A stretch of DNA of 64,000 bases from the NCBI GenBank assembly GCA_028284585.1, contig JANQRK010000008.1, positions 1,695 to 65,694 on the forward strand, in the 5' to 3' direction. The notes under the pieces were generated by a model. It had not been told where the DNA came from, did no database searches, and saw only the letters and a program-made list of their open reading frames with translations. Every line of letters begins with the position of its first letter. Position 1 is the first letter of the stretch. The stretch is from Chromatiales bacterium (GTDB lineage Bacteria; Pseudomonadota; Gammaproteobacteria; Chromatiales; Chromatiaceae). Shown piece by piece: positions 1 through 15,190 of the stretch. A program made the translations under genes and the position numbers.

Positions 1-3000
1 TCAGTGACTTGGCATCGAGCACCGAGAGGTTGAATGCCTCGACGCTGATGTCTGCGTCGGCATCTGAGGTAATCAGCTCACTGTCCGTCACATAGGCCCG
101 TGCTGTGCTCAGGAGCTGGTTGTTTGCAATGACCCCGCCCCGCGAGCCCGAACCGCCAGAGCTGGAGGTGTTTTCGACCGTGCTCTCGTCCAGCGCCGTG
201 ATGCGTGCCATCTCGGTGGCGGTCACCGTGATGCCGCTGCCGGCGGTGATCAGGCTGTCGTCGATGAAGGCCTCGGTGCGGGCATCGACGTCATTGCGCG
301 CAATCAACCCGAAATTATTCTTGGCGGTGCCACCCGAGAGGCCGACCAGGGTGCGCACTGCTTTACCGATACTGCCCAGCGCGTTGAACTCGTCGACGCG
401 CTGCCAGATGCCGAAGTTCGTGTAGTCCGTTGTGCTGAGGACCTGCGTGGTGCCGTCCGCACCCATATAGCGGAAGATATCGCCCTCTTCGAGATCGTCA
501 TTCGGATCGAGGTCGGCGACATTCTTGCCGATGCGCACCTGGTCGCCGAATTCCATCGACGCGGTGCCGGACTCGGTGGTGAACTGGTAGTCCTGGAGTA
601 CCGTCGAGATGGCCTCGTCGACAATGCTGAAGCCGAGCGTATTGGTCTCGCTGGCCTCGGGCTCCATGGAGGTGGTCGCATCGATAATCGCGCTGTCGGT
701 CGCCGTGACATTTACGGCCCCCTCCGCGACCGGCGGGTCACCAAAGGTACCCCGCTCATCGACGTTGTCCATGCTGGCCTGCACCTCTGTGGCGAGCAGG
801 TTCGAGGCCAGGATGAAGGAGGTATTGACGCCGTCCGCACCATAGGCCGCCGCGGCCGCAGAGGTCGCCTGGGTATCTACCCGCGCCGTAATCAGCGCTT
901 CATTCATCGCCGTGACGTTCACATCGCCTAGGACATCCAGGTCGGAATCCACGACCGTTGCCATCACCCTGGCCGGATTGGCCGTGCCGATCGCATCGAT
1001 CAGGGCATCGATGCCCTGTGACAAGACATCCTGCGACTCGTAGCCGATGGTGTTGTAGGCGAGCATCACGCCGACTGACTCGGAGCCGGTCGAGACCGCG
1101 GTACTGTTGGTGGCGGTGATGGTCGACGAGTTCGTGGCGCTGACCGCAAAGTTGCCGGTAGCACCGCCACCGGCAACGCCGGCATCGACAGTGCTGTCCT
1201 CCACCGTCGCCAAGGCACTGCTAAGGATACCGTTGGTGGCGATGACGCCATTGTTGGCGGTCGATGTGCCTTTGCCGAAGATATTGCCGCCGGACGACTC
1301 GGCATCGGTGTCGGCAGTCGCTGTGATCTCGGCGTCGACGCTCGCCGTGACCGCGATATCGCCGGATGCAGTGCGTGCCGCGACATTGCTCAAGCGCGCC
1401 TCGACCTCGGTGGAGACTTCGTTGCGTACCAAAACGCCGCCGTAGGACAGCGAATTCGACGGCAGAAAATTATTGCCCTGCGGGATCAGGTCGGTCTCGA
1501 GGATCTCCTTCCAGAGATCGAGATTGCCGAAGTCCTCGTCGGCGAGGTCGAGATTGCGATTACTGCCGACGAACTCGTAGACCCGACCCGGCGATCCACC
1601 CTCGTCCGGGTCGGCCGCGAAGTCGGTGGTGAGGAATACGCTGTCGCCGAACTCCACCAAGGTGGTGCCGACCAGCTCGTTGCCGTCGGCGTCGAACACC
1701 ATGGTGCCGTCGGTCGAGAAGTCCGCGTCCTCTAAGCCGGCGATGGCCGTCCCGAGCAGGTTGGCACCGCCATCGCTTGACGTAATCGACGACGAGACCA
1801 GCTTGGAGTTGGAGAAGATGCCGGCGCTATCGCTCGCGTTGACCGTGATGCTGCCAGCGGCAAACACGGTCTCGGGCGACGCGGCCCCTGCGGTCTCGAT
1901 GTAGGCACGCGCCGAGGTGTTGGTGCGATTGGCCGCGATAGAGCCACTGACCGCCACACTGGCGACGCCCGCTGCGCCGAACAGCGCATCGGCAGTCGAA
2001 GAGGCTGCGTTGCTGACCGTCGCGTTGATCGCCGGTGAGGACTCGGCGTCGACGACGATGTCGCCACTGGTCGAGACCTCCGTGTCGACGATGAAGGCGC
2101 TGGTGTTACCGCCGTTGCTCGCGACCAGCTGGTCGAAGCCGACCACCACGTCACCGAAGCCCTCACCGACGGTCGCGCCGGTGGGGTTCGCGATTTCGAT
2201 ACCGATGGCATTATAGGCAAAGGCACCGCTGCCATTGCCGGTGACCGCGCCCGAGGTCGAGGACCCGGTCTTGGCCGTTGCCGTGATCAGCGCGTCATTG
2301 CTGGCCTGCACCTCGACGCCGCCGTCGGTCTCGACGAGGCTGTCGAGGATACTTGCCGTGATGTCACCGCCGATGATATTGGTCGCGATGGTCCCGTTGA
2401 AGGTCAGCTCGAGCGGATCGATCTGGGCACCGCCGCTATCAAGAATCTGTGCGTCGGTGAATGCCACTGCCTGGATCGCGCTGACCGCAGTGACGGCGAG
2501 CCCGCCGGACGCTACGGAAATCAGGCTGGAGTTGCCGTCGGTATCGTCGATGGTCGCCGATACCGAGCGCACGATGTCGTTGACCGCCGTGGCCGAACCC
2601 AGCTCCAACGGAAAGGTCAGCGCGCCGGGATCGAGCTGGAACTCCGATGAGGTGGCAGTGAGCTGGGCGGTGTCGCTGGCGCTGAGGTTGACGCCGGCAG
2701 CACCATCTATTTGCACCTCTGAGCCGGCGATGGACGCACTGGTCCCGCCGGTCACGGTGTTCTCCGCGCGCTTGGCCGTCGCCGTATAGGTCGCCATATT
2801 ACTGGCCTCGACATTCAGGCCATCGGCATTGATCTGCGCATTGGTGATACTGGCGGTTGCGGTGTCGCTGGCCGTGGTGACGTGTTGGCCGTACAGATCG
2901 GAAACGATGGTGCCGGCCGTCCCACCACCCGCATCATCGGCAATGCTCGCCGAGACGCTGGTGACACCGGCGTTGGTACTGCTGGTTCCAGATACTGTGG

Positions 3001-4606
3001 CAATGCCATTGGTGGCGTCACCAATGGCAGAAGTCGCCGAACGGGTCAGATCGATGGCCGAGCTGGCGTCGCTCAGATCGAGCTCGGTCAAATCAATGAG
3101 ATCGGCGCTGTCCTCGCTCGGGTCGTAGTCGATACGCACCGCAGAGGCGTCGGCGGCGTTCAAGCTCAAGCTGGTGTCGGCCACCACGGCGACGCCGCCC
3201 GCGATCGTGGCACTCGCGGTATGCGTACCGGTCACACTGGTGTCGCCATCGTCCAACAGACTGGCATCTTGGACCAGCACAGTGTAGAGACCGGAGACGT
3301 CGGCCGTGATGCCGACGACGCCACCGCTTAGCGCCGCATCGACCGCGACGCTCGCGTTGGCCTGATAGCTGAAATCGTCCAGCGTGGACTGACTGTCGCT
3401 GATATCGACCGAGGCATCCAACGTGATGTCGCCGGCCGCATCCAGGGCACCATCGACCACGATGGCCGCGTCCAGTCCGGTATCGACGTCGGCCGCGGCA
3501 GTGATGCTGACATCGCCAGCGGTCGAGGTGATGCTGGCGGTCTCGGTAAGGGTTACGCTCTCCGCGGTCGCGGAGAAATCGCCCGGCATACTCAGGATGG
3601 CATCGATTATCAGGGTATCGGTGCCGGTACCCAGGTCGATCAGCAGTGAATCAAATCCGGTTTCGAAGGTAACGAATTCGAAGGTGTCGGGCGTATCCGT
3701 GCTCTCGAAGGTGAAGACATCGCCGGACCTCGTCAGCGTCGCATTGTCGTCGCTGGCCAAGCTCAATAGGCCGAAGTCGAGCTCGATGGCGCTGACCGTC
3801 GCACCGAGAGGAATCGGTTCCAAGCCATCATAGCGCAGCGTCGCACCGTCCAAGACGACAACACCGGAATGGGGGCCGCTAAAACCGAAGGTCACGGTGT
3901 CATAGTGGCCGTCATTGATCTCCAGGGTATCGAAACCGCCGACGCCGCCGTCGAGCAGGCCGCTCGAGCCGGCACCTTGGTTCAGTACGAAGGTATCCTG
4001 GTTGTGCGCGGCGCCGAGCAGATTTTCCACCCCGCGGAAGCCGACGTGCTCGTTGAGGGTCCCGGCGTCGACGCCTGTGAGTTCCCAGAGGCTGTCCGTG
4101 GCATCGCCGGCCAGGGCATCGTCGCCGCCCCGGCCGTCGAAGGTGATCACCAGAGAACTCAGATCGTGTTCGAGACCCAGATCCAGGGTCAATAGATCAT
4201 CGAGCTCAGATCCCGTGATGACGACCTCGCTGACCGCGACCAATTGCCGTTGGGCGATTATTGGGGTCTGGGCATCCGTGTTATCCAGGATTTGGAGCAC
4301 CGGCGTGCCCGCATGTTCGACCAACCTCAGCGTAAGGTCGAAAGGGTTGTCGGCTTGTGCCGCAAAGCTCAGGGGGTCGGCTGACAGCAGCAGCCGGGGT
4401 TCGAGCGCCTCGAACTGAATCTTGGGGTGGCCCGGCAATGACCGTCGGATCGGGGGAGCCACACGCGGCCCTTCACGCCCTTTGATGCCGCCGCCCGGCC
4501 TGAGGAAAGGGGGTGTCGCTAGGGTCCGGCGGCCGGTTCGCCACAGTCGACTGCAAGCGGCCCGGAACGGCGTCTTGCCAGTCGCAGACACAAACGGGTG
4601 CGCCAT
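1..4606 (-). CDS. Giant LEPR-XLL-motif extracellular/surface protein, N-terminal part (>1535 aa, continues beyond left edge)
   Basis: Manual translation: ATG at 4606 with GGGGAAGAG RBS, then ...IQFEALEPRLLLSAD... (about 4380-4420), Gly/Asp-rich segments (FDGRGGDDAL, LDGGVGGFDTL) and long A/S/V/I/T/D-rich sequence. The ORF track lists no minus-strand ORF in this frame anywhere in 1-4606, consistent with no stop codon; spot checks agreed. Confidence 0.92.
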   Translation of the reverse strand, partial: MAHPFVSATGKTPFRAACSRLWRTGRRTLATPPFLRPGGGIKGREGPRVAPPIRRSLPGHPKIQFEALEPRLLLSADPLSFAAQADNPFDLTLRLVEHAGTPVLQILDNTDAQTPIIAQRQLVAVSEVVITGSELDDLLTLDLGLEHDLSSLVITFDGRGGDDALAGDATDSLWELTGVDAGTLNEHVGFRGVENLLGAAHNQDTFVLNQGAGSSGLLDGGVGGFDTLEINDGHYDTVTFGFSGPHSGVVVLDGATLRYDGLEPIPLGATVSAIELDFGLLSLASDDNATLTRSGDVFTFESTDTPDTFEFVTFETGFDSLLIDLGTGTDTLIIDAILSMPGDFSATAESVTLTETASITSTAGDVSITAAADVDTGLDAAIVVDGALDAAGDITLDASVDISDSQSTLDDFSYQANASVAVDAALSGGVVGITADVSGLYTVLVQDASLLDDGDTSVTGTHTASATIAGGVAVVADTSLSLNAADASAVRIDYDPSEDSADLIDLTELDLSDASSAIDLTRSATSAIGDATNGIATVSGTSSTNAGVTSVSASIADDAGGGTAGTIVSDLYGQHVTTASDTATASITNAQINADGLNVEASNMATYTATAKRAENTVTGGTSASIAGSEVQIDGAAGVNLSASDTAQLTATSSEFQLDPGALTFPLELGSATAVNDIVRSVSATIDDTDGNSSLISVASGGLAVTAVSAIQAVAFTDAQILDSGGAQIDPLELTFNGTIATNIIGGDITASILDSLVETDGGVEVQASNDALITATAKTGSSTSGAVTGNGSGAFAYNAIGIEIANPTGATVGEGFGDVVVGFDQLVASNGGNTSAFIVDTEVSTSGDIVVDAESSPAINATVSNAASSTADALFGAAGVASVAVSGSIAANRTNTSARAYIETAGAASPETVFAAGSITVNASDSAGIFSNSKLVSSSITSSDGGANLLGTAIAGLEDADFSTDGTMVFDADGNELVGTTLVEFGDSVFLTTDFAADPDEGGSPGRVYEFVGSNRNLDLADEDFGNLDLWKEILETDLIPQGNNFLPSNSLSYGGVLVRNEVSTEVEARLSNVAARTASGDIAVTASVDAEITATADTDAESSGGNIFGKGTSTANNGVIATNGILSSALATVEDSTVDAGVAGGGATGNFAVSATNSSTITATNSTAVSTGSESVGVMLAYNTIGYESQDVLSQGIDALIDAIGTANPARVMATVVDSDLDVLGDVNVTAMNEALITARVDTQATSAAAAAYGADGVNTSFILASNLLATEVQASMDNVDERGTFGDPPVAEGAVNVTATDSAIIDATTSMEPEASETNTLGFSIVDEAISTVLQDYQFTTESGTASMEFGDQVRIGKNVADLDPNDDLEEGDIFRYMGADGTTQVLSTTDYTNFGIWQRVDEFNALGSIGKAVRTLVGLSGGTAKNNFGLIARNDVDARTEAFIDDSLITAGSGITVTATEMARITALDESTVENTSSSGGSGSRGGVIANNQLLSTARAYVTDSELITSDADADISVEAFNLSVLDAKSL

Positions 4607-5022
4607 ACTCTTCCCCCTCGTCAACATTCCAGCCGCAAGATCGAATCCGGCTCAGTCAGCAGCAGCCGGCGGAAGACGCACACCCCGTCATCGACGGCGG
4701 GACCGGGCGCACCCAGCCGTCAGCGCAACCTACACTGCAGCGATACTCCGCCCAGACACCACCGCGTCACGCAGGGCTTGACGTGCCATCAGCCGATAGA
4801 CCGGACAGTTGCAATCTGGCACCGCAAAGGACGGTCCGTTGGGCCAGCTGAAGGTAGAGGGATCGCTATCCTAGTTCGAGGTTATTCTATGCTCAGCTTC
4901 CGAATTTCTTTCCTAAAGGATAGCGGCAAAACTATCGAATGCAATCCGCGGGATGCCCTGATGTGCACTCGGACTAGGCGCCGAGTCGAGACCTATTTGA
5001 GCAGTGCGGGCTATAAATAAAA

Positions 5023-5060
5023 TCAGTAAAAACTGAATTTTACAGACTACATTCAATGTA
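5023..5060. promoter_or_regulatory. Two short palindromes in an AT-rich patch upstream of the giant gene
   Basis: TCAGT-AAAA-ACTGA (5023-5036) and TACATT-C-AATGTA (5048-5060). Confidence 0.35.
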
Positions 5061-5086
5061 ACTTAGGAAGAGCTGCACGCGGGCTG

Positions 5087-5899
5087 CTAATCGGCGACGG
5101 TAGGCAGAAAGCGAATACCGCAACGTACACCGGCCGGTACGCGAAACTCGGTATTGGGCAGTACCAATCGAACGCCGAAGGTGTCGCTGGCCGGATCGAT
5201 CACGTTATCCACCACGCTGACGGTAGCAGTCTGGACCTCGGCACCCGGATAGCGGGGACTTACCTCGGCCTGCTGTCCTGCCTTAACGGCCCCAAAACGC
5301 TCCACGGGGAGGAGGACTTCGACATTCAGCGGATCGACTTCGGCGATCCGCAGTATCGTCGTGTTCTCGACCGACTCGCCGGGCGAGAGCAAGCGTTCGA
5401 CCACGATGCCTGCCACCGGACTGACCAGCGTCCTGCGCTTCAAGATCTTGCGCGCCCGTTCGAACTCCAGCTGGGCCAGCTTGCGCTGGTGTTGGGTCTG
5501 ACGCAGCCGCAACTGGGCGCGTCGCGCCTCGGTCGCCGCACGATCTTTCTCGGTCAAAGAGATCACCTTTTTCTCGAACAGATTCTCGATCCGCGCGAGT
5601 TCGCGCCGCGTCAAACCGACATCAGCGCGCCGCTCGGCCAGTTCGGCATCCATTTGCGCCCTCGCCTCGGCCAAGGCGACGCTAGCCTTCTCGACGTCCG
5701 CTTCCAACTGGACCACCACTTGCCCCGACTCGACCACATCACCCCGAGCGGCCAGGATGGACTCGACGATGCCCTCTTCGCGGGTGCTCAGGTCTATCAC
5801 CGAGCTGGGCTCGATCAGGCACCCGAAGCTCTTATCGTCCGACGCCTGACCGGCCGGCACCAAGACGCCGACGAACAACAGAACATGCCATTTCTTCAA
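5087..5899 (-). CDS. HlyD/RND-type periplasmic adaptor (membrane fusion protein), 270 aa
   Basis: Signal-like N-terminus, lipoyl-hybrid half motifs (GIVESILAARGDVVESGQVVVQL; LVSPVAGIVVER), coiled-coil hairpin, IDPASDTFGVRL beta-barrel; TTG start. Confidence 0.9.
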   Translation of the reverse strand: MKKWHVLLFVGVLVPAGQASDDKSFGCLIEPSSVIDLSTREEGIVESILAARGDVVESGQVVVQLEADVEKASVALAEARAQMDAELAERRADVGLTRRELARIENLFEKKVISLTEKDRAATEARRAQLRLRQTQHQRKLAQLEFERARKILKRRTLVSPVAGIVVERLLSPGESVENTTILRIAEVDPLNVEVLLPVERFGAVKAGQQAEVSPRYPGAEVQTATVSVVDNVIDPASDTFGVRLVLPNTEFRVPAGVRCGIRFLPTVAD

Positions 5900-5925: not shown

Positions 5926-7962
5926 TTACTCGGCTGTGCCGCCGAAGGCAAGTAACTCATTCAACTGCTCGTCGGCGCGTAACAGCCTTTTGCGAAGCCG
6001 CGAGTTGCGTCGCTCCAGTTTACGTTGCAGATGGCCGAGCAGTAGCCGACCCGCGGTCCCCATAACCGGCTTGGCACGCGAACGCGCCGGACCGAACAAG
6101 CGATCCAGCCAGTGTTTCGAGCACCCCTGCGCCAACTCGTCCTGCAACGACACCAGGTATTCATGCGATCCAGGGTCACCCTGGCGCCCGCTGCGGCCGG
6201 TCAACTGTCGATCGATACGCCTTGCTTCGTGAAACTCGGTCACTATCACGTGCAAACCACCCGCTTTGGCGGCAGCCGGTGACAATTTGATATCCGTGCC
6301 CCGGCCGGCCATGTTGGTCGCCACGGTCACGCACCCGGCCTGTCCCGCCTGCGCGATCACTTGTGCCTCTTGCCGGTCCTGACGTGCATTAAGGATTTGA
6401 TGCGGAATACCCGCCGCCCGCAACCGCTCGCCGAGCACTTCGGATGCACCAAGGGTTCGGGTACCCACCAACACCGGGCGTTGCTCGGTACGCAATTCGC
6501 AAACCCGCGCCACCACCGCATCCCATTTGTCATCCAGGGTGCGATACACAGCCCCGGGCATGGCACGGCGCTGCGAGCGCCGATGGGTGGGTACTTCCAC
6601 GACATCGAGCCCGTAGACCGCCCACAGCTCGTTCACCACTTCCCGTGCTGTTCCGGTCATTCCGGCAAGCTTCAGGTAGCGCCTAAAGAAGCGTTGGTAG
6701 CTGATACGGGCCAAAGTGCGTGGTGTGCTGGTGATATCGCATGCCTCCTTCGCCTCGATCAGCTGGTGTAGATTACGCTGCCAGGAGCGATCAACCATCG
6801 TGCGGCCGGTGTTTTCATCAATGATTTCGATGCGGCCGTCCCGGACCAGGTAGTGAATGTCCCTCTCGTACAGGTGTAACGCGCACAGCGCCTGGCCCGC
6901 CAACTCTTCGCGGCGACGAGTCGACGACCAAGGGCCACCCAGCGATGCCGCCAGCGCTCGCAAACGGGACTTGCCCGCATCAGTGAAAGTGACGTCGCGA
7001 TGGGCGGCATCGATAGTAAACTCACGCTCCGGTGTGAACTGCTCAGCAACCCAAAGGGCTTGTTGATACATATCCTGATTCACTTCGCCTTGATCACGCC
7101 GTGAGATGATCAATGGCGTGCGCGCCTCATCCACCAACACGCTGTCCGCCTCATCGACGATCGCATAACAAAGGCCTCGCAACATCAGGCGCTGTGATCG
7201 CGGCTGCTCGGTATGTAGGCCTTCCAGCTCCATTCGCAATCGACCGTGCGACGTATCGGTCACTAGCCGATCCCTTAGATAATCGAAGACCAGTTGCTTG
7301 TTGGTGCAGTAGACGATATCGCAGGCATAGGCCGCCTGGCGTTCAGTCGTGCTCATCGCCGCGGTGACGCTCCCCACGGTAAGCCCCATGTAGTCGTAAA
7401 CGGGGGCCATCCACTGGGCATCGCGGGTCACCAAGTAATCGTTCAAGGTGACGATGTGAACAGGCACACCGGCGAGCGCCGATACCCCTGCCGGCAAAGT
7501 CGCCGTCAGGGTCTTGCCTTCGCCGGCCTCCATCTCCGCGACCACGCCGCTGTATATCAGCCATCCACCGAGGAGTTGCACGTCGAAGTGCCGCATGCCC
7601 AGGGTGCGAGACGCAACCTCTTGAACCATGGCGAAACCACGCGCAGCGTCTTTGCGGTGGTTGCCGGTAGCGGACAGACGCCGGCGCAGCAAGCTGATCT
7701 CGGCCTTTAGGGCCTGATCCGACAACCGACGCAGTTGCTCCGCCTCTTTGTGTATCAAGGGCAGAATTTTGCAATTCAGATCGGCACGGCGACGCATGAG
7801 TTGGCGTCTTTGCCCGCTGATCGCTGCGACGGCGCAATCAAGGGCGCCTAGGGGAGTTTCTGGTCGCTGTGGGTAACTGCCTAAGGCGACCCCTGGCCGC
7901 AATGCTGAGCTGAACATCGACTTATACCGTGCGTTGGAAATCTGCCAAATCTCGCGGCCCAT
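5926..7962 (-). CDS. SecA-like DEAD ATPase paralog lacking the C-terminal part (accessory SecA)
   Basis: MEAGEGKT Walker A (7510-7524 for GEGKT), DEADSVLVDEARTPLIIS, GMTGTA, ATNMAGRGTDIKL, RRIDRQLTGRSGRQGDPG; ends about 70 aa later. Likely start is ATG 7917 (MFSSALRPG). Confidence 0.93.
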   Translation of the reverse strand: MGREIWQISNARYKSMFSSALRPGVALGSYPQRPETPLGALDCAVAAISGQRRQLMRRRADLNCKILPLIHKEAEQLRRLSDQALKAEISLLRRRLSATGNHRKDAARGFAMVQEVASRTLGMRHFDVQLLGGWLIYSGVVAEMEAGEGKTLTATLPAGVSALAGVPVHIVTLNDYLVTRDAQWMAPVYDYMGLTVGSVTAAMSTTERQAAYACDIVYCTNKQLVFDYLRDRLVTDTSHGRLRMELEGLHTEQPRSQRLMLRGLCYAIVDEADSVLVDEARTPLIISRRDQGEVNQDMYQQALWVAEQFTPEREFTIDAAHRDVTFTDAGKSRLRALAASLGGPWSSTRRREELAGQALCALHLYERDIHYLVRDGRIEIIDENTGRTMVDRSWQRNLHQLIEAKEACDITSTPRTLARISYQRFFRRYLKLAGMTGTAREVVNELWAVYGLDVVEVPTHRRSQRRAMPGAVYRTLDDKWDAVVARVCELRTEQRPVLVGTRTLGASEVLGERLRAAGIPHQILNARQDRQEAQVIAQAGQAGCVTVATNMAGRGTDIKLSPAAAKAGGLHVIVTEFHEARRIDRQLTGRSGRQGDPGSHEYLVSLQDELAQGCSKHWLDRLFGPARSRAKPVMGTAGRLLLGHLQRKLERRNSRLRKRLLRADEQLNELLAFGGTAE

Positions 7963-8007: not shown

Positions 8008-10155
8008 CTATACCCCGAAATGGCTCAGAAACAACTGTCTGAGACTGCGGTACCACTGGCGTGCCAATGGCTCGACGCCATGATCAAAGCGCACATAGAC
8101 GCGATTGCCGATGCGCTCAATCGCCTGTAGACCCGGAACGGCCAAATCGAGCTGAAATACCCTCTGCAGCGTCTTCAATCCCGCGGGATCCTGTGGATCA
8201 AGCGCTAACGCACCACCGCCTTCGGTCGCCAAGGCCGCAGTCGGCAGACGATCCGCAGCCCCTGGCACAAAGCGGCTGATACTGGCGCGCATCGGTTCTG
8301 CTGTCCAGTCCGCCAAGCGTACATCAACCCGATGGGTTTGCTCGCGAACCAGCCCGATCTGCTCTTGATCGACGACAACTCTCACCGCGATATCTTCGGG
8401 TGAAAGAACATAGCCGACCAATTCGCCGCGTCGCAGGAACCGGCCCGGTAGATCTTCGGCATTGGGCACAATGAATACGCCGTCGGTCGGGCTAAGGATA
8501 ACCAGTGCCGCCAGGCGCTCGCTGGCGCGTGTCAACTCGGCGCGCACGCTCTCGATCTCAGCACGAATGACATCGGCACGGGTCGGATTGGCGAACTCTT
8601 GCTGCATATACCTGGCATCCAACTCCTCCAATCGGCTTTGCAGTAAGCGCACGTTCGCTTGCTGCAAAGTCGCTTCACAACGCACCAGGGGTTGGCCCTT
8701 GCGTACCAAGTCATTCGGTTGCGTCATCAGCTCCGCTACGAAGCCCTCCGCCTCGCTGCGTACCAGCGATTGTTGAGGCATCCAGACGACGCCTTCCGCA
8801 CGCGTCCACAAGGGCGCAGGAACGAGCAGCAGCAACCCGAGCATGCCACCCAGGATACACCCGGTCGACACCAGGGCACGTGCCCGAGTACGTTGCAACA
8901 CCGGGCTATGAAACACAAACCAAAGGCTCTTGAGCGACGGATAGACCACCATCACAACAACAGCCCAAATCGCCAAGATTAGCCCCAGCACAAAGAACTT
9001 GCCCGAAACAAACAGGACAATGACGAACACGATAAACAGGCGATAAACGAAGGAGGCGATGCCATAAATCAAGAACCAAGCCCGCTCGCCGGGCGCGGTT
9101 ACCGGTGAGCTGGCTTGCTCGGCCTTGAAGAGATAGCGCTGCACCAGGTACCCCAAGTACTTTTTGGAGCGCGTGGCAAGATTGGGGATCTCTATGGTGT
9201 CCGCGAGGACATAGTAGCCATCAAATCTAAGCAAAGGATTGCCGTTGAAAAGTAGCGTCGAAATACTGCCAATGAGCACGACATTGAAGGCGAAGGTACG
9301 AACCAATCCCGGCTCGACCAGCAACCAGATCATCAAGGCCAATGCCGCCAGCAGTAGCTCGACCATGATCCCTATTGCGCCCACGATCATGCGTTGGTGT
9401 TTGTCGCTGAACGCAGCCGCCGATGACGCCTCGACATAGGGTATGGGGGCCAGGACCAGCAAGATGATCCCCATCTCGTGTACCTCTCCCCCCCATACCT
9501 TGACCGCATAGCCGTGGCCGAACTCGTGCACCATCTTGATCAGGGGATAAGCCGCCCACAGCATCAATAGATTCTGGAACGTCAGCACACGATCCACGAC
9601 ATTGTCGGTCAATTCGCTCCAGTGCATACCGGCCAAGACAGCACCGGCACCGACGACGAGTAGCCACGCAAAGAACCCGAACCAACTAAACAGAGGGCGA
9701 ACCAACGGCAAGGTGGCGGACAAGAATCGTTCAGGATCGAGCAAGGGGAAGCGAATGGCCAAGGGATTTGTGAACCGCTGCCGCCACTTGGCGCGCCGCT
9801 GACGTTGGCCGCGCTGAAATACCTCTCGCGTATCCGGTATCACGTCCGATTGTAGGACGTCGGCCGCGTGTAGCTGGCCTAGCAGCCGCAGCAGTTCATC
9901 TTGCGTGGGGGCATGCTCACCGAGTTCGCGTTCGGCCAGTTCCCAAACCTGCTGGAGTGTGCGGTGCCCGTCGAGCAGGCCGATCACGAAGTTGGCCGCT
10001 GGGGTGAAGCGGAACGAGCGTTCGTTGGATGGATCGCGCAGCACGTACCAGATTTGGCCTCGGTACTCGTGTCGATCGAACTGCGCATGCCGCCGAATGC
10101 TCGGCTTCAGCGCCGCCACGCGGTACCAAGATGTGCTGGTCAGTGCCTCCCGCAT
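8008..10155 (-). CDS. PqqD/RRE-like domain + site-2 (M50) metalloprotease + HlyD-like adaptor fusion, 715 aa
   Basis: HEFGH (9514-9528) and NPLLRFDG (9217-9240) M50 motifs, multiple TM helices, C-terminal lipoyl-hybrid/coiled-coil region; N-terminal about 90 aa resembles the PqqD pattern (YVLRDP...FRF...LLDGHRTL). Confidence 0.88.
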   Translation of the reverse strand: MREALTSTSWYRVAALKPSIRRHAQFDRHEYRGQIWYVLRDPSNERSFRFTPAANFVIGLLDGHRTLQQVWELAERELGEHAPTQDELLRLLGQLHAADVLQSDVIPDTREVFQRGQRQRRAKWRQRFTNPLAIRFPLLDPERFLSATLPLVRPLFSWFGFFAWLLVVGAGAVLAGMHWSELTDNVVDRVLTFQNLLMLWAAYPLIKMVHEFGHGYAVKVWGGEVHEMGIILLVLAPIPYVEASSAAAFSDKHQRMIVGAIGIMVELLLAALALMIWLLVEPGLVRTFAFNVVLIGSISTLLFNGNPLLRFDGYYVLADTIEIPNLATRSKKYLGYLVQRYLFKAEQASSPVTAPGERAWFLIYGIASFVYRLFIVFVIVLFVSGKFFVLGLILAIWAVVVMVVYPSLKSLWFVFHSPVLQRTRARALVSTGCILGGMLGLLLLVPAPLWTRAEGVVWMPQQSLVRSEAEGFVAELMTQPNDLVRKGQPLVRCEATLQQANVRLLQSRLEELDARYMQQEFANPTRADVIRAEIESVRAELTRASERLAALVILSPTDGVFIVPNAEDLPGRFLRRGELVGYVLSPEDIAVRVVVDQEQIGLVREQTHRVDVRLADWTAEPMRASISRFVPGAADRLPTAALATEGGGALALDPQDPAGLKTLQRVFQLDLAVPGLQAIERIGNRVYVRFDHGVEPLARQWYRSLRQLFLSHFGV

Positions 10156-10171: not shown

Positions 10172-12073
10172 CTACGGCTTCCAGGACCACAGCCAGAATC
10201 GCAGCCAGTGGATCAGCTTGTGGGTCCAGATCCAAACCTGCTTGCGCTGACCGATCTGGATCTTGCCGACGCCCTCCATTCCCGGACGAAGTCGCGACGA
10301 GGACCCTTCTAGGTTTGCTTCAACCCTGAAATAGTTGCCCCCTCCCTTAGCACTGGAGATCGGGGTGATCTTGGTGATCCGCATGGGCAAAATCTCGGTG
10401 CTCAATCCAGCTAGCACCAACTGACCTACCTGCCCCGGCTGCACCTGCGAGGCATCTCGCTCATCCACGTTGAGAATGACCCGATAGCTGTTCAGGGGTG
10501 CGATCTCGAACAAGGTATCGCCGCGTGCCACAGGTACGCCCAGTGACTGACTCATATCACCGGATACCACGACACCGTCGAACGGTGCCTTCAATCGGGT
10601 GCGCGCCAACTGCTCGTCTAGCAGCAACAATTGACTGTCGGCCTGGTCGATCTGCGCCTGTAACACACGTACTTGCGCACGATCGCGGTCTGCAAGCGCC
10701 TCGCTGTATTCGCGCTGTCGTTGTTCTTTCTGGCTCGCCCACTTGGCCCGTTGTAGGCGCAGATCTTTGTCTTCGAGCGTACACAAGACGTCGCCGGCCT
10801 GGACCACATCACCTGCCCGGTAGAACGCCTGGTCGACATAGCCATCGAGCAGTGCGGTGACTACCCGTTGAATCGAACCCTGCAGATGGGCATCAGCGGT
10901 AACCCGATAATCGCCTTCGGCGAAGTACGCGTAGGCCGCGACACAAGTCAGCAATGTTGCGGCCAACTTGAGTCCAAGGTGCCGGGGTCCGATCAACCGC
11001 CCTCCGAATCCCACTACAGAATCCCAGAGCTTGCTAACGATCCAGCGGTCGTCGCGGCGCTTGACCTCGAGGATTGGGCCGGCCAAGGTCGCAATGTTGC
11101 GACACAATTCCACAGTCGCTTGATCGAAAGATTGTCCCAGGGGACGGGCCAAAGTCATTGCGCCGACAAGCCGATCACCGTCTACCAAGGGGATGGTGCA
11201 AACGCCACCCAGGGTCGCCTGCTCCAAGAGCTGCGTCTGGGCACGAATCTGGACCAGGCTCGCCTCCGACTGATCGGGTGCTGGGCTGACCAAGACCCTT
11301 GCCTGCTCTATGGCTTCGTCCATCGCAGCACCGATCGAACGATGCAAGTTGGTCTTCTCGTTGATTGCCGCACTATGCGACCAGGCTGACACCCGAACTC
11401 GTCGGCCCGACCCGAAGCCCAGCGCGGCCCATTCGCAATCCAAATGCGTGGCAAGCTCGGTGGCCAGGGCGGTCACCGCAGCGCGAAAACTTGCTTGCTC
11501 CAAAGGCACAGCGATCAGTTCGAGCAGCGTCACCAGCCGCTCCTTGGAAGTGAAGGCTTTGCGCCTGACCAAGGCCTCCAACCATCCGCAGCTCCACTGC
11601 AATTGGCGCATGATGGAGCCTAGCTCGGTCGAGTCGCGGTCCTTGACTTCGACGGCGGCAACCCCGTGCAACAGTTCATCGACGACGATAGGGAAAGCTA
11701 CCGCATCTGGTCCACGGCGATCGCTGACTGTCGTCGAGTCACTACTACGTACGACACCCCGCCGCTCTGCCATGGCCAACTCGGCCGCCGCCACCAACAG
11801 AGGACTGCCGGATCCACCAACCGGCCAATAGGCGAGCGGCCGGTACGGGCCCACTCCGGCCTTGCCGAGGACGACAGCTGCATGTTGTACACCGCCGGTG
11901 AAGCGGCACAGCAATTCCAACCAGGCGGCCGCGAAGGCCTCGGGCGAAGATGCCCGTTGGAATTCGACCCAAGCTTGTTTATCGATGTAAGGTGCATCCG
12001 CCGCCGCGGTGACCTCACCCTCGCACTCGACCGAGGCAGAATCGTGCGACGTATCCTCAAGCCCAGTTGCCAA
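10172..12073 (-). CDS. GAF-domain-containing HlyD-family adaptor, 633 aa
   Basis: Two GAF-like segments (AFPIVVDELLHGVAAVE; CTIPLVDGDRLVGAMTL), one TM (LGLKLAATLLTCVAAYAYF), then hybrid motif, coiled coil, LKAPFDGVVVSGD, LRPGMEGVGKI. Confidence 0.88.
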   Translation of the reverse strand: MATGLEDTSHDSASVECEGEVTAAADAPYIDKQAWVEFQRASSPEAFAAAWLELLCRFTGGVQHAAVVLGKAGVGPYRPLAYWPVGGSGSPLLVAAAELAMAERRGVVRSSDSTTVSDRRGPDAVAFPIVVDELLHGVAAVEVKDRDSTELGSIMRQLQWSCGWLEALVRRKAFTSKERLVTLLELIAVPLEQASFRAAVTALATELATHLDCEWAALGFGSGRRVRVSAWSHSAAINEKTNLHRSIGAAMDEAIEQARVLVSPAPDQSEASLVQIRAQTQLLEQATLGGVCTIPLVDGDRLVGAMTLARPLGQSFDQATVELCRNIATLAGPILEVKRRDDRWIVSKLWDSVVGFGGRLIGPRHLGLKLAATLLTCVAAYAYFAEGDYRVTADAHLQGSIQRVVTALLDGYVDQAFYRAGDVVQAGDVLCTLEDKDLRLQRAKWASQKEQRQREYSEALADRDRAQVRVLQAQIDQADSQLLLLDEQLARTRLKAPFDGVVVSGDMSQSLGVPVARGDTLFEIAPLNSYRVILNVDERDASQVQPGQVGQLVLAGLSTEILPMRITKITPISSAKGGGNYFRVEANLEGSSSRLRPGMEGVGKIQIGQRKQVWIWTHKLIHWLRFWLWSWKP

Positions 12074-12598: not shown

Positions 12599-14767
12599 TC
12601 AAGGCGCTGCATCGGCCTTGACATTGTCAATGATGACGACAGTCCTTTCGTCGGAATAGGTCTTTTTGTTGTTGAATCCACCAATGGCGACCCTGTGCTC
12701 GCCGGCCGAGAGTTCGCCGAGGTCGACTTGGAACCTCTGCCAACCGGACGTCTTCCAAGGACCACCGTTTCCGTCACCCCTGATCCGCTTCAGAAAGCTA
12801 CCACCAGGTGCACCAATCAGGTTTCCATCGACAGACAGAAGTGCATCACTGTACTCGTCGCTCTCATAACCTGGGGCCTGGGCTATGCGATAGTCAAAGG
12901 ATAGGGTTACCTTGCTCGGGCTACTCAAGGAAAAGGTCCTCTGCCATCCACCCGACATATCCTGGACTGCGCGGTTGTCCCGGCCGCCCAGCACCACTGC
13001 TAGGAAGCCGTCGCCATTTCGCCAGGCGGCATGTCTTCCCGAGGCGTAACGCGGGTGATTGGTATTGCGGAAAGCATCAGCGACGAACTCGAAGCCCTCG
13101 GTGTCTTCAGTGAAGTCCGAATGAAAAATTGCCGGCCCGTCGTCACCGCGGACGTTGATTCTTACCTCTGCCGTATTGTTCGAAGGATTGTCGTCATTGT
13201 CCGCTGCCGAGTTCACGGTGCTTGTCAGCGTATCCGCTGCCGGCCCGGCTTGTAATCGCATGACGACCGTCCGTGTGGAACTGCTGTCAATGTCGCCAAA
13301 GTCACAGCTCACCTCCGACTGACTCTCAAAACACTGCGCCCCGCCGTCGGCGACGTCGATCATCGCCAAACTCTCTGGTATCGAGATCGCAGCCGTTACA
13401 TTTGTCGCGACGGCCACACCGCTGTTTCTCACCTCCACTCGATACTCGAATTCGCTCAGGACCGTCGTTTCGATCGGGTTCGTCGGAATGATCACTCGAA
13501 CGTCCGTGGTCGCAGGAGGCGGCTGATCAGGGTCGTCAACTTCTGTGATACAGACCGCGCGATCAATATGCGGTTGCATCTGGTCCAAACTGCACTGAGA
13601 GAATTGATCGCTGCCATTGCCGAACGGATTCATAATGAAGTTCCCTGCCGTATTCGCACAGGGTGAGCCGCCCTGATTATCGTGCGGCGCACCGAAGTTG
13701 TGGCCCATCTCATGCGCGACTATCAAGGCTCCCGCCGTGCCTCTACCAGTGGTTTGACTCAGCCCGACACCAAAGGCCTCGCGACACAAGGTGCCGACGT
13801 AGGCAATGCCGACGACGCCACCATTTAGATCTCTCCCGGTAAACAGGTGCGCCAAACCAGGATTGACAAAGTCGCTAGCGGCCACAAAGTCGCTGAACTG
13901 GTCCAGAAGAGTGCCGGCTTGCGAGGAACTCAATCCTCCGTTGCTCCGCAATGCACGAATCTCAGTGACATTGATTTGAACACCCACCTGCTCAGAGTAG
14001 ATGCCGTCAACAATGTTCATACGGGCCACCACAGCGGCATCCGGATTGCTGGGATTGGCGTCGACAAACTGCCTGTCCGCGACCACGGCGATGTCGAGCT
14101 TTCGAGCCGCCGCCGGGAGAGCCTGTCTCAATGTACGCAGCTCGTCCACCAAGCCTTGGTAATCATCCATAGGCCTCGCGCTTGGATGTACCGCACAGCT
14201 TCCCGTACAGGACTCGGTATCTGAAAGCCGATATATCACTGGATACGGCTGGCGCTGTCGTGCCTTTGGTGCCGCAGCGCCTTGCTGATCATCCAGCATC
14301 GGTTCCACTCGGTCGGATGTATCGATGATGTACAGCTCCTCGCCATCCCACATGGTTCCGGAGATCTGCTCTCCCGCACGATTGATGCGTACCCAAGACC
14401 CATCGATGCCTTCGATGTAGCCCTCGTAGGCCGTCATGGATTTTTCGAGTCGCTGTCTCTGCTCTTCGGGCAGATCAGCAATCAACCGGGTATTCGGCTT
14501 GAGGACTACAGCGAACCGCTTTCCAAAGGCCTCGAAAGTCAGCGTGGCCTCAGATGCCTGCTCGGCTTGCTGCGCCGCTTGGGCGTTATCAGTTGATAAG
14601 GAGGGCGGTAGGCCGAACTCCACCGATTGCATGGGCTCATGATGGAGTATGCGGAAATCTTCATCGACGGTGAGGGCACCTTCGTGAACACCATGAGCGA
14701 GTGAGGCTCGCCCTTGAATACCGATACACAGTATTGCTAACAAAATATACGTTGTAGATCTTCTCAT
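12599..14767 (-). CDS. Secreted reprolysin-like (M12B) zinc metallopeptidase with DUF11/Ig-like and C-terminal beta-sandwich domains
   Basis: Signal peptide, prodomain, HEMGHNFGAPHD zinc motif, Met-turn FIMNP, DUF11-like NSAADNDDNPSNNTA; ATG 14767 has a GGAG RBS. Confidence 0.9.
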   Translation of the reverse strand: MRRSTTYILLAILCIGIQGRASLAHGVHEGALTVDEDFRILHHEPMQSVEFGLPPSLSTDNAQAAQQAEQASEATLTFEAFGKRFAVVLKPNTRLIADLPEEQRQRLEKSMTAYEGYIEGIDGSWVRINRAGEQISGTMWDGEELYIIDTSDRVEPMLDDQQGAAAPKARQRQPYPVIYRLSDTESCTGSCAVHPSARPMDDYQGLVDELRTLRQALPAAARKLDIAVVADRQFVDANPSNPDAAVVARMNIVDGIYSEQVGVQINVTEIRALRSNGGLSSSQAGTLLDQFSDFVAASDFVNPGLAHLFTGRDLNGGVVGIAYVGTLCREAFGVGLSQTTGRGTAGALIVAHEMGHNFGAPHDNQGGSPCANTAGNFIMNPFGNGSDQFSQCSLDQMQPHIDRAVCITEVDDPDQPPPATTDVRVIIPTNPIETTVLSEFEYRVEVRNSGVAVATNVTAAISIPESLAMIDVADGGAQCFESQSEVSCDFGDIDSSSTRTVVMRLQAGPAADTLTSTVNSAADNDDNPSNNTAEVRINVRGDDGPAIFHSDFTEDTEGFEFVADAFRNTNHPRYASGRHAAWRNGDGFLAVVLGGRDNRAVQDMSGGWQRTFSLSSPSKVTLSFDYRIAQAPGYESDEYSDALLSVDGNLIGAPGGSFLKRIRGDGNGGPWKTSGWQRFQVDLGELSAGEHRVAIGGFNNKKTYSDERTVVIIDNVKADAAP

Positions 14768-15190
14768 TGGCACTCCAAGTTGGTGGATTGGGAAAGTGAG
14801 ATCCAGTCATATTTTTATTTCATTTAGATAGCTCCACGGCCGACCAGATACGTCCGAAAAATTGATTTCCACAGCTCTGCTTCACGGCCACCGATGGATA
14901 ATTCGCCAATTGGCAACATTGAGATATTGGAGAGTCATGCCACGGATAAGCGAAAAACCGAGATAATTGATAGTTGCTAGGAATATGGACTAGCGAAATC
15001 AACGAATACTCTCCACATCGATGTCCAATAAATGTCGTTCGGCGTCATTCAGATCGATCGTCGAAAACAAACCCAGTTCGAACATCCAGTTAGAGGTACC
15101 GCGGTCGTGCGCCAATGCATCACGCTCGCTTGGATGACCCATGGGTCAAAGCGACCTTAGCGCTTCAACAGGCATTCGGTCTGTTGGATT

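Follow-up and report, generated by a model that had tools for sequence, protein, structure and literature searches.

The 77 N-terminal residues of a giant protein encoded near one end of the analysed window are read here as a cytoplasmic, Sec-independent leader of the LEPR-XLL class, which would hand the protein over to an envelope machine encoded directly upstream of it. The window is a stretch of 64,000 nucleotides from a Chromatiales bacterium (contig JANQRK010000008.1, positions 1,695 to 65,694, forward strand), and all coordinates below are window positions unless another contig is named. The machine is a four-gene cassette encoding a GAF-HlyD adaptor, a fusion of an RRE (PqqD-like) domain, an M50 protease and an HlyD domain (hereafter M50-HlyD), a shortened SecA paralogue and a small HlyD-type adaptor. 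This reading is given a probability of roughly 55%. The tag is probably the machine's address label, because it is almost confined to machine-bearing genomes and resembles the leader read by the machine's closest studied relative. By analogy with that relative, recognition of the tag by the machine is plausible; we only infer binding, cleavage, and the direction and route of export.

A basic leader without a signal peptide precedes a LEPR-XLL box

The open reading frame (ORF) of the giant protein (2..4606, minus strand) is matched by NF012209, the NCBIfam profile for LEPR-XLL. It runs out of the window and off its contig (C113), leaving at least 2,100 aa visible, and this visible part is repetitive and rich in Ala, Ser, Thr, Val and Asp. 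Translation down from the ATG at 4606 on the minus strand gives MAHPFVSATGKTPFRAACSRLWRTGRRTLATPPFLRPGGGIKGREGPRVAPPIRRSLPGHPKIQ, a leader of 64 residues, followed by FEALEPRLLLSAD, the core box (4376..4414, minus strand; residues 65-77). The box conforms to phi-E-x-[LM]-E-P-R-phi-L-L-S-A-D, where phi is a hydrophobic residue; positions in this class of leader are counted below from the second Glu of the box as 0. Between a short N-terminal cap and the box lie an Arg/Pro/Gly-rich, basic, low-complexity linker of atypical codon usage (4439..4591, minus strand; residues 6-56) and a pre-box segment, LPGHPKIQ (4415..4438, minus strand; residues 57-64), which holds the family's basic (-7) and hydrophobic (-6) positions.

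An earlier note on this DNA had described about 63 Arg/Pro/Gly-rich residues without a hydrophobic core, followed by the box, and the composition of the leader bears this out: ten Pro, ten Arg and eight Gly make up 44% of the 64 residues, and the net charge is +12. No Sec hydrophobic region (h-region, about 7-15 residues) was detected in the leader, where the longest hydrophobic run is 4 residues and the best 15-residue Kyte-Doolittle window scores 0.96. Because no 15- or 19-residue window of the leader exceeds 1.0, neither a Sec nor a Tat h-region is present. The leader does contain RR pairs (GRRT, IRRS), without the Tat consensus S/T-R-R-x-F-L-K and without an h-region after them. The best leader window on the Kyte-Doolittle scale is the 'LLLSA..' stretch of the box itself, which is the sole hydrophobic patch in residues 1-95. 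The note had let the element end at 4378, which is the first base of the Asp codon, so its description is right to within one base.

The same note had taken the motif for a LEPR-XLL tag on a very large protein, and profile searches agree. NF012209 matches residues 71-92; the score is 32.9 bits for the protein itself and 40 bits when the genome is searched in six frames, against a curated cut-off of 17 bits, and 14 control genomes gave zero matches at E<=0.01. A genome-wide scan for further LEPR-XLL proteins, as the note had suggested, located three such genes in this genome, all with the tag at the N-terminus of a large ORF (2,003, 3,344 and at least 2,100 aa) and each directly preceded by a small HlyD gene. 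The consensus of Pfam PF07595 (a basic and a hydrophobic residue, then ExLExRxLL[A/S]) is fitted by K(-7) I(-6) Q F E A L E P R L L L S; the PF07595 profile did not match, and neither the first 168 aa nor the leaders of the two paralogues had a match to any Pfam family at E<=10. The label 'planctomycete' used in the note is overly restrictive, this genome and 80 related loci being mostly proteobacterial.

Homologous N-termini place the start at ATG 4606

From the conservation of an MA-x-PF cap and of LPGHP in homologues, we take ATG 4606 to be the true start and the long leader to be a real, translated one. The start codon and cap, MAHPF (4592..4606, minus strand), follow the subfamily consensus M-A-[HYFQ]-P-F, and a Shine-Dalgarno-like GAGGGGGA (4612..4619, minus strand) lies 5 nt 5' of the ATG. 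Seven homologues from other genomes (L035, L120, L122, L126, L132, L138 and L139), translated from their first ATG, begin with MAHPFAS, MAFPFF, MAYPFG, MAYPFC, MSFPFA, MAYPFG and MAQPFG. A Shine-Dalgarno-like purine run precedes most of these ATGs, the leaders are 50-65 aa long, and the first mature domain is homologous (DLTLRL...LQILDN). The sole relative in a search of 5.8 billion proteins, a Candidatus Kentron symbiont protein with 49% identity, keeps LPGHPxIxFExLEPRLLLS (LPGHPGIHFETLEPRLLLSGD versus LPGHPKIQFEALEPRLLLSAD here, with LPGHPGIH as its pre-box segment) and has a candidate start of the form M-x-H-x-x-V-S. Within the family, one genome only matched the leader protein (37% identity), and relatives were too few for a substitution test. 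The earlier note had considered a real start downstream of the motif; the homologue N-termini support one upstream of it, at ATG 4606.

Codon statistics point the other way. Under a codon-usage model trained on this genome, the leader's 63 codons obtain -0.16 bit per codon, against 0.30 +/- 0.15 for coding windows (5th percentile 0.04), and GC at the three codon positions is flat (0.65/0.70/0.71), compared with 0.71/0.40/0.75 in the next 63 codons. The long leader might accordingly be an artefact, with translation starting at a GTG 15 codons before the box (MAPPIRRSLPGHPKIQ-FEALEPR) and the Arg/Pro/Gly stretch representing a translated 5' untranslated region. An AAGGG upstream of this GTG and the leaders of 18-21 aa carried by the two paralogues in the genome fit such an account. 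It is nonetheless highly improbable, given the MA-x-PF cap at the first ATG of the seven long-leader homologues, most with a Shine-Dalgarno-like run, the retention of both M-x-H-x-x-V-S and LPGHP in the Kentron protein, the open frame and the strong Shine-Dalgarno sequence at ATG 4606. We read the non-coding-like codon score as that of a low-complexity linker, weakly constrained, between a conserved cap and a conserved box. Two other starts were rejected: an upstream in-frame ATG at 4627 (MLTRGKS...), which has neither homologue support nor a Shine-Dalgarno sequence, and a TTG 7 codons before the box, against which the conservation of MA-x-PF and LPGHP outweighs the codon and GC statistics.

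The box is the conserved and portable part of the tag

The anatomy of the tag was compared across 63-66 non-redundant N-termini, drawn from 50 genomes with a cassette as well as from the genus and the family. Starts in this set were picked by rule as the first ATG, so that some leader lengths are upper bounds, and the box statistics rest on sequences found with LEPR-type profiles and describe that class only. In 63 leaders, the distance between the first ATG and the box is 12-94 residues (median 36), the pre-box leader is net positive in 90% (median charge +6), and the median length of the longest hydrophobic run is 3 residues. In 66 N-termini, information content is high solely from -4 to +8 and collapses past Asp +8; the conserved core, phi-E-x-[LM]-E-P-R-phi-L-L-S-A-D, is exactly the 13 residues singled out in the earlier note. 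Glu occupies -3 in 64/66 sequences, Leu, Met or Phe occupies -1 in 66/66, and -4 is hydrophobic. Positions -9 to -7 are mildly enriched in Arg and Lys and position -6 in hydrophobic residues, which are also enriched at -4.

The box sits in front of unrelated mature N-domains, of one type in six loci and of another in this protein and the Kentron protein, and only the box residues are invariant. The box therefore acts as a portable tag and not as part of a fold. In the six loci (L037, L091, L104, L107, L108 and L109), it is followed by an acidic spacer and then by a conserved domain of ~170 aa, which the protein studied here does not have. The consensus of this domain (ELV.VD...DYQ.L..DIL... 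HIISHG.DG...LG...L ... GD.L.YGC.LAA ... LTGADVAAS.D.TG...LGGDW.LE) looks like that of DUF4347.

The MA-x-PF long-leader subfamily comprises 8/63 leaders, of 50-65 aa as against 12-35 in most. Its members carry a basic amphipathic patch in mid-leader, which reads SRLWRTGRR here and KRLISSL(L), RRLIRS or RRLLRG in homologues; we know of no signal that matches either the MA-x-PF cap or this patch. A different start (M-x-x-DSKINKLS..., ..W[LF]K[NK]R..) is common to other long leaders. An association of long MA-x-PF leaders with SecA-containing cassettes is unsupported, since short leaders also adjoin cassettes of the SecA type (e.g. L091).

Tag and machine are linked across genomes

The tag is tied statistically and physically to the neighbouring machine. 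Among 61 relatives, a strong M50-HlyD homologue was present in 14/14 LEPR-positive and in 4/47 LEPR-negative genomes (Fisher p=1.4e-10), these four all being incomplete assemblies or having matches cut at contig ends. Among 301 genomes of the phylum, the homologue was present in 49/50 LEPR-positive and 39/251 LEPR-negative genomes (odds ratio 266, Fisher p=8.6e-31); only one LEPR-positive genome, an assembly that is 69% complete, lacked it. Of the 29 LEPR matches in the genus, 23 share a contig with an M50-HlyD gene, mostly 1-4 kb downstream of it and on the same strand.

The 80 loci fetched with the M50-HlyD protein come from Gamma-, Beta- and Alphaproteobacteria, Desulfobacterota, Myxococcota and one Acidobacteriota metagenome-assembled genome. 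The order GAF-HlyD, M50-HlyD, SecA paralogue, small HlyD is kept, with the SecA paralogue following M50-HlyD in 73/80 and most of the others ending at a contig edge. A 20-column motif hidden Markov model built from one genus was too narrow and detected the box in 10/80 cassette loci, and many of the 80 have their giant gene upstream, so placed that its N-terminus falls outside the 10-kb flank; whole genomes were therefore searched again with NF012209. A regular expression for a sister motif, LExRx[LM][FLM][DS][GA], returned nothing new in the same loci. Of 50 cassette genomes, chosen by similarity to the M50-HlyD protein of the window, 36 carry LEPR-XLL ORFs of up to 19,202 aa, often ending shortly before the cassette, as in Neptuniibacter, where an ORF of 11,870 aa ends ~2 kb before it.

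The candidate reader combines an RRE fold with an intramembrane protease

The M50-HlyD protein (8008..10155, minus strand) matches NF041824, the daptide intramembrane leader peptidase, with E=2e-47 over residues 41-404, and also gives a weak match to PqqD. Its HExxH and NPLLRFDG (NxxPxxxxDG) motifs are intact and invariant among the three paralogues. A structural model of its N-domain (residues 1-145), built from a 40-sequence alignment, has a mean predicted local distance difference test score (pLDDT) of 80, reaching ~90 over residues 11-100, and a beta3-alpha3 topology; the RRE fold spans about residues 20-100 (nt ~9856-10098). The top Foldseek matches in the PDB are PqqD (5sxy), TbiB1 with its leader (5v1v), lasso B1 with its leader (6jx3), TruD, ThcOx and CteB, at modest significance (best E 6e-3). 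Because all of these are RRE-containing proteins, the model points to a leader-binding RRE/PqqD fold that faces the cytoplasm and is attached to an intramembrane protease, apparently an active one. A sequence search of the PDB with the RRE region returned a spurious match to BurrH repeats only.

The daptide leader is a closer parallel than the lasso leader

The earlier note had heard in the PxL of the box an echo of the YxxPxL motif of lasso leaders. That echo fails, as an aromatic residue three positions before the Pro occurs in 0/66 leaders (it is Ala here). What the lasso leader bound by B1/RRE shares with the present system is a reader of RRE fold and a Pro followed by a Leu two residues on, that is, PxL only. 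As an analogy, the daptide leader is the better parallel. Daptide precursors encoded beside RRE-site-2-protease fusions have the leader motif ELExMEAP (Ren et al. 2023, 10.1101/2023.03.08.531785). In MpaA1 this motif is E(-8) L(-7) D(-6) P(-5) M(-4) E(-3) A(-2) P(-1), and the core begins right after it. RRE-dependent processing is lost with either substitution, L(-7)A or M(-4)A, and the authors' model puts these residues into neighbouring hydrophobic pockets of the RRE. The RRE used for the Ala scan was that of MpaB and not that of MpaP (MpaP/DapP), the RRE-dependent intramembrane peptidase proposed to remove the leader (10.1101/2023.03.08.531785).

In 64-66/66 N-termini, the LEPR box is spaced phi(-4)-E(-3)-x-[L/M](-1)-E(0), which is a short match to the daptide motif, seen by comparison with its consensus, and with P-R where daptides have A-P. 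Some LEPR members read V-E-P-M-E against L-D-P-M-E in the daptide leader; the protein studied here reads F-E-A-L-E. The likeness between the leaders would lie in a hydrophobic-acidic-x-Leu/Met-Glu spacing, and the proposed reader here, like that of daptides, is an RRE fused N-terminally to a site-2 (M50) protease. From this spacing and the homology of the readers, Phe65 and Leu68 are proposed as docking residues. The systems differ in their cargo, at least 2,100 aa here against a peptide of ~40 aa, in the modification enzymes and the C-terminal Thr, neither of which is found here, and in the protease, which here has an extra HlyD domain and is encoded beside a SecA paralogue instead of ABC (ATP-binding cassette) transporters.

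A proposed route and its alternatives

In the route proposed here, the first half of the box (phi-E-x-L/M-E, here F-E-A-L-E) would dock on the cytoplasmic, N-terminal RRE/PqqD-like domain of M50-HlyD, much as the daptide leader (E-L-D-P-M-E-A-P) engages its RRE through Leu and Met. The candidate docking peptide is HPKIQFEALEPRLLLSADPL, with Phe65 and Leu68. The second half (P-R-phi-L-L-S-A-D), the one hydrophobic stretch of the leader, would be presented to the intramembrane M50 site, with a cut in or near the box. The unfolded chain would then be moved N-to-C by the shortened SecA paralogue, its path leading by way of the three HlyD-type adaptors into a TolC-type duct whose gene lies elsewhere. 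The MA-x-PF cap and the basic linker may contact the SecA paralogue. A more elaborate version, put forward tentatively and held to be rather doubtful, treats the box as a two-part signal, in which an RRE-docking half, inherited from or shared with leader recognition in ribosomally made, post-translationally modified peptides (RiPPs), is joined to a site-2-protease half and serves an ABC-less, SecA-paralogue-driven secretion of megadalton proteins; in the MA-x-PF subfamily, the second N-terminal element and the long basic linker would provide a further contact, perhaps with the SecA paralogue.

Several observations weigh against a leader that hands its protein to this machine. The 39/251 LEPR-negative genomes with M50-HlyD homologues mean that the machine family is not exclusive to the tag, and some LEPR genes lie far from any cassette (e.g. 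the second giant in G271). A planctomycete genome encodes ~50 tagged proteins (PMC8567305), and this speaks against a strict relation of one operon to one cargo. Within the present genome, the two other LEPR-XLL genes lie on contig C91, on either side of a second GAF-HlyD/M50-HlyD set, and that set lacks a SecA paralogue. The four-gene cassette shows no evident inner-membrane channel. The phi-[DE]-x-[LM]-E likeness is short and could be convergent or due to chance. Finally, the M50-HlyD protein scores 162 bits against NF041824, where the equivalog cut-off is 300 bits, and it is therefore a relative and not a member of the daptide peptidase family.

The high number of tagged proteins in planctomycetes, far above the number of cassettes, together with the LEPR genes that have no cassette nearby and the 39 M50-HlyD-positive genomes without a LEPR match, would also suit a tag that serves an unlinked pathway, as has been proposed for planctomycetes. 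The cassette would then be a co-regulated accessory, such as a quality-control protease or a periplasmic scaffold serving giant fibres, and not the reader of the tag. This is quite unlikely in view of the presence of M50-HlyD in 49/50 LEPR-positive genomes, with one incomplete exception. Moreover, the sole known job of the machine's RRE domain is to bind leader peptides, and the box resembles, in its anchor spacing, the leader read by the nearest characterised relative.

A different division of labour would make the tag a retention or anchor module. The giant would be exported by another route, for instance C-terminus first through a type I system, its LEPR-XLL end would be held by the RRE-M50-HlyD protein so as to tether the fibre at the envelope, and the M50 cut would be a regulated release, following the logic of LapA and LapG. 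The lack of an inner-membrane pore among the cassette's products and the presence of a GAF sensor domain fit this arrangement, as do HlyB- and PrtD-type ABC exporters encoded elsewhere in the genome, RTX-like repeats in several giants that adjoin the cassette, and LEPR-XLL giants of some other bacteria with C-terminal RTX and serralysin domains (PMC10868602). The RTX repeat GGxGxD, however, occurs 0 times in both complete LEPR paralogues of this genome and 0 times in the visible 2,100 aa of the protein studied here, whose C-terminus is off the contig. The genome's classical type I operon (C13:53560-64623, minus strand) has an adjacent RTX substrate of its own: it encodes an HlyB-type ABC exporter (1,026 bits, above the TIGR01846 cut-off), an HlyD and a 2,313-aa protein in which the GGxGxD repeat occurs 43 times. 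The RRE is placed on the cytoplasmic side of the M50 membrane domain, its relatives read leaders prior to processing and export, and a SecA-type motor runs N-to-C. Retention is thus considered unlikely, and handover to the machine through an N-terminal leader is the reading preferred here.

Relation to known export signals and secretion loci

An N-terminal planctomycete motif, RRLxxExLExRxLLA (PF07595), was proposed as a novel export signal by Studholme, Fuerst and Bateman in 2004, as cited in PMC8567305 and PMC3343278. This motif and LEPR-XLL (NF012209, 'LEPR-8K') share with the present leader a short N-terminal ExLE(P)RxLL(S/A) box after basic residues, on very large surface-type proteins without a classical signal peptide. 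The planctomycete motif differs in its host, which is proteobacterial here, and the present tag has a stricter box, a 64-aa leader with an MA-x-PF cap, and no match to PF07595. Neither of the sources on the motif ties it to a machine (Studholme 2004; Mahajan et al. 2021, PMC8567305). LEPR-XLL and the planctomycete motif mark many of the largest bacterial proteins, and a role in export has been discussed since 2004 with no receptor or route shown.

The machine side has its own history. A locus described as 'secondary SecA_DEAD + Peptidase_M50/HlyD + HlyD + GAF/HlyD' was proposed to be secretion-related, with no substrate or signal named (Kamneva, Poudel and Ward 2015, PMC4452313). The four genes stand in the same order directly upstream of the giant gene here, and the giant LEPR-XLL neighbour with its leader is proposed as the missing cargo side of that locus. 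The literature searched yielded no link between the LEPR-XLL motif and the SecA-paralogue/M50/HlyD locus and no published description of the MA-x-PF cap.

Giant RTX adhesins of type I systems (HlyBD-TolC; LapBCE) resemble the present case in being giant, repetitive surface proteins served by HlyD-type adaptors and a probable TolC duct. LapA in particular has an N-terminal element, a retention module that is cut by LapG; processing of the present leader is only proposed. Type I systems differ in using a C-terminal signal and an ABC transporter, in contrast to the N-terminal element, the cassette without an ABC gene and the 2,100 visible residues without RTX repeats found here.

As far as could be seen, the start codon, the MA-x-PF long-leader subfamily, the exact bounds of the box, the rejection of the lasso motif and the residue-level daptide parallel are new. 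The locus places the tag beside a machine published in 2015 without a cargo and gives a hypothesis at the level of residues, in which Phe65 and Leu68 would correspond to daptide Leu-7 and Met-4. Culturable carriers of the cassette include Neptuniibacter (sp. QD57_21), Roseobacter sp. GAI101 and Methylobacterium extorquens AM1. If the reading is true, it would define a new protein secretion route, and RiPP-type leader recognition would also serve protein export; if it is refuted, the tag remains an orphan.

The cassette and its genomic surroundings

The cassette opens with the GAF-HlyD adaptor (10172..12073, minus strand), continues with M50-HlyD and the shortened SecA paralogue (5926..7962, minus strand), and closes with the small HlyD-type periplasmic adaptor (5087..5899, minus strand) directly upstream of the giant gene. 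The SecA paralogue retains the DEAD motor and the preprotein-crosslinking domain without the C-terminal domains, and it is the sole SecA paralogue in the genome beside the canonical SecA. Gaps within the cassette are 16-45 nt long, and 480 nt then separate it from the giant gene.

The two complete LEPR-XLL paralogues (C91:60921-66932 and C91:39565-49599, both minus strand; 2,003 and 3,344 aa) have a common C-terminal element, made up of a hydrophobic, transmembrane-like segment of ~35 residues (G.G.SL..G[YF]V.W..R.G.L..S.L), PAWxxFDPxPVL and an acidic tail. The element has the look of a membrane anchor or sorting signal at the C-terminus. It has no Pfam or NCBIfam match and is absent from the giants beside SecA-type cassettes in the 80 other loci, and PAWxxFDPxPVL was rejected as a general feature of LEPR proteins.

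A third GAF-HlyD and RRE-M50-HlyD pair (C115:4320-8242, minus strand) is 40% identical to that of the window. No LEPR-XLL gene, SecA paralogue or small HlyD gene adjoins it, and a 225-aa untagged ORF lies downstream. The pair may represent a cassette that is orphaned or decaying; alternatively, its cargo may be encoded outside that 12-kb contig.

Upstream of the cassette by 526 nt, and on the same strand, a gene (12599-14773, minus strand) encodes a 724-aa metalloprotease of the reprolysin type (M12B) with a DUF11 repeat; the protein has no match to the LEPR-XLL profile.

In the 480-nt gap itself (4607-5086, minus strand), no sigma-70 or terminator consensus and no Rfam family, including the c-di-GMP riboswitch, was found, and the folding z-score against shuffled sequences is -1.0. 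The first ~80 nt are strongly AT-rich (UUACAUUGAAUGUAGUCUGUAAAAUUCAGUUUUUACUGAUUUUAUUUAUAG) in a genome of 60% GC, and within them an A/U-rich hairpin precedes U-runs. The gap probably serves as promoter or regulatory region for the giant gene itself.

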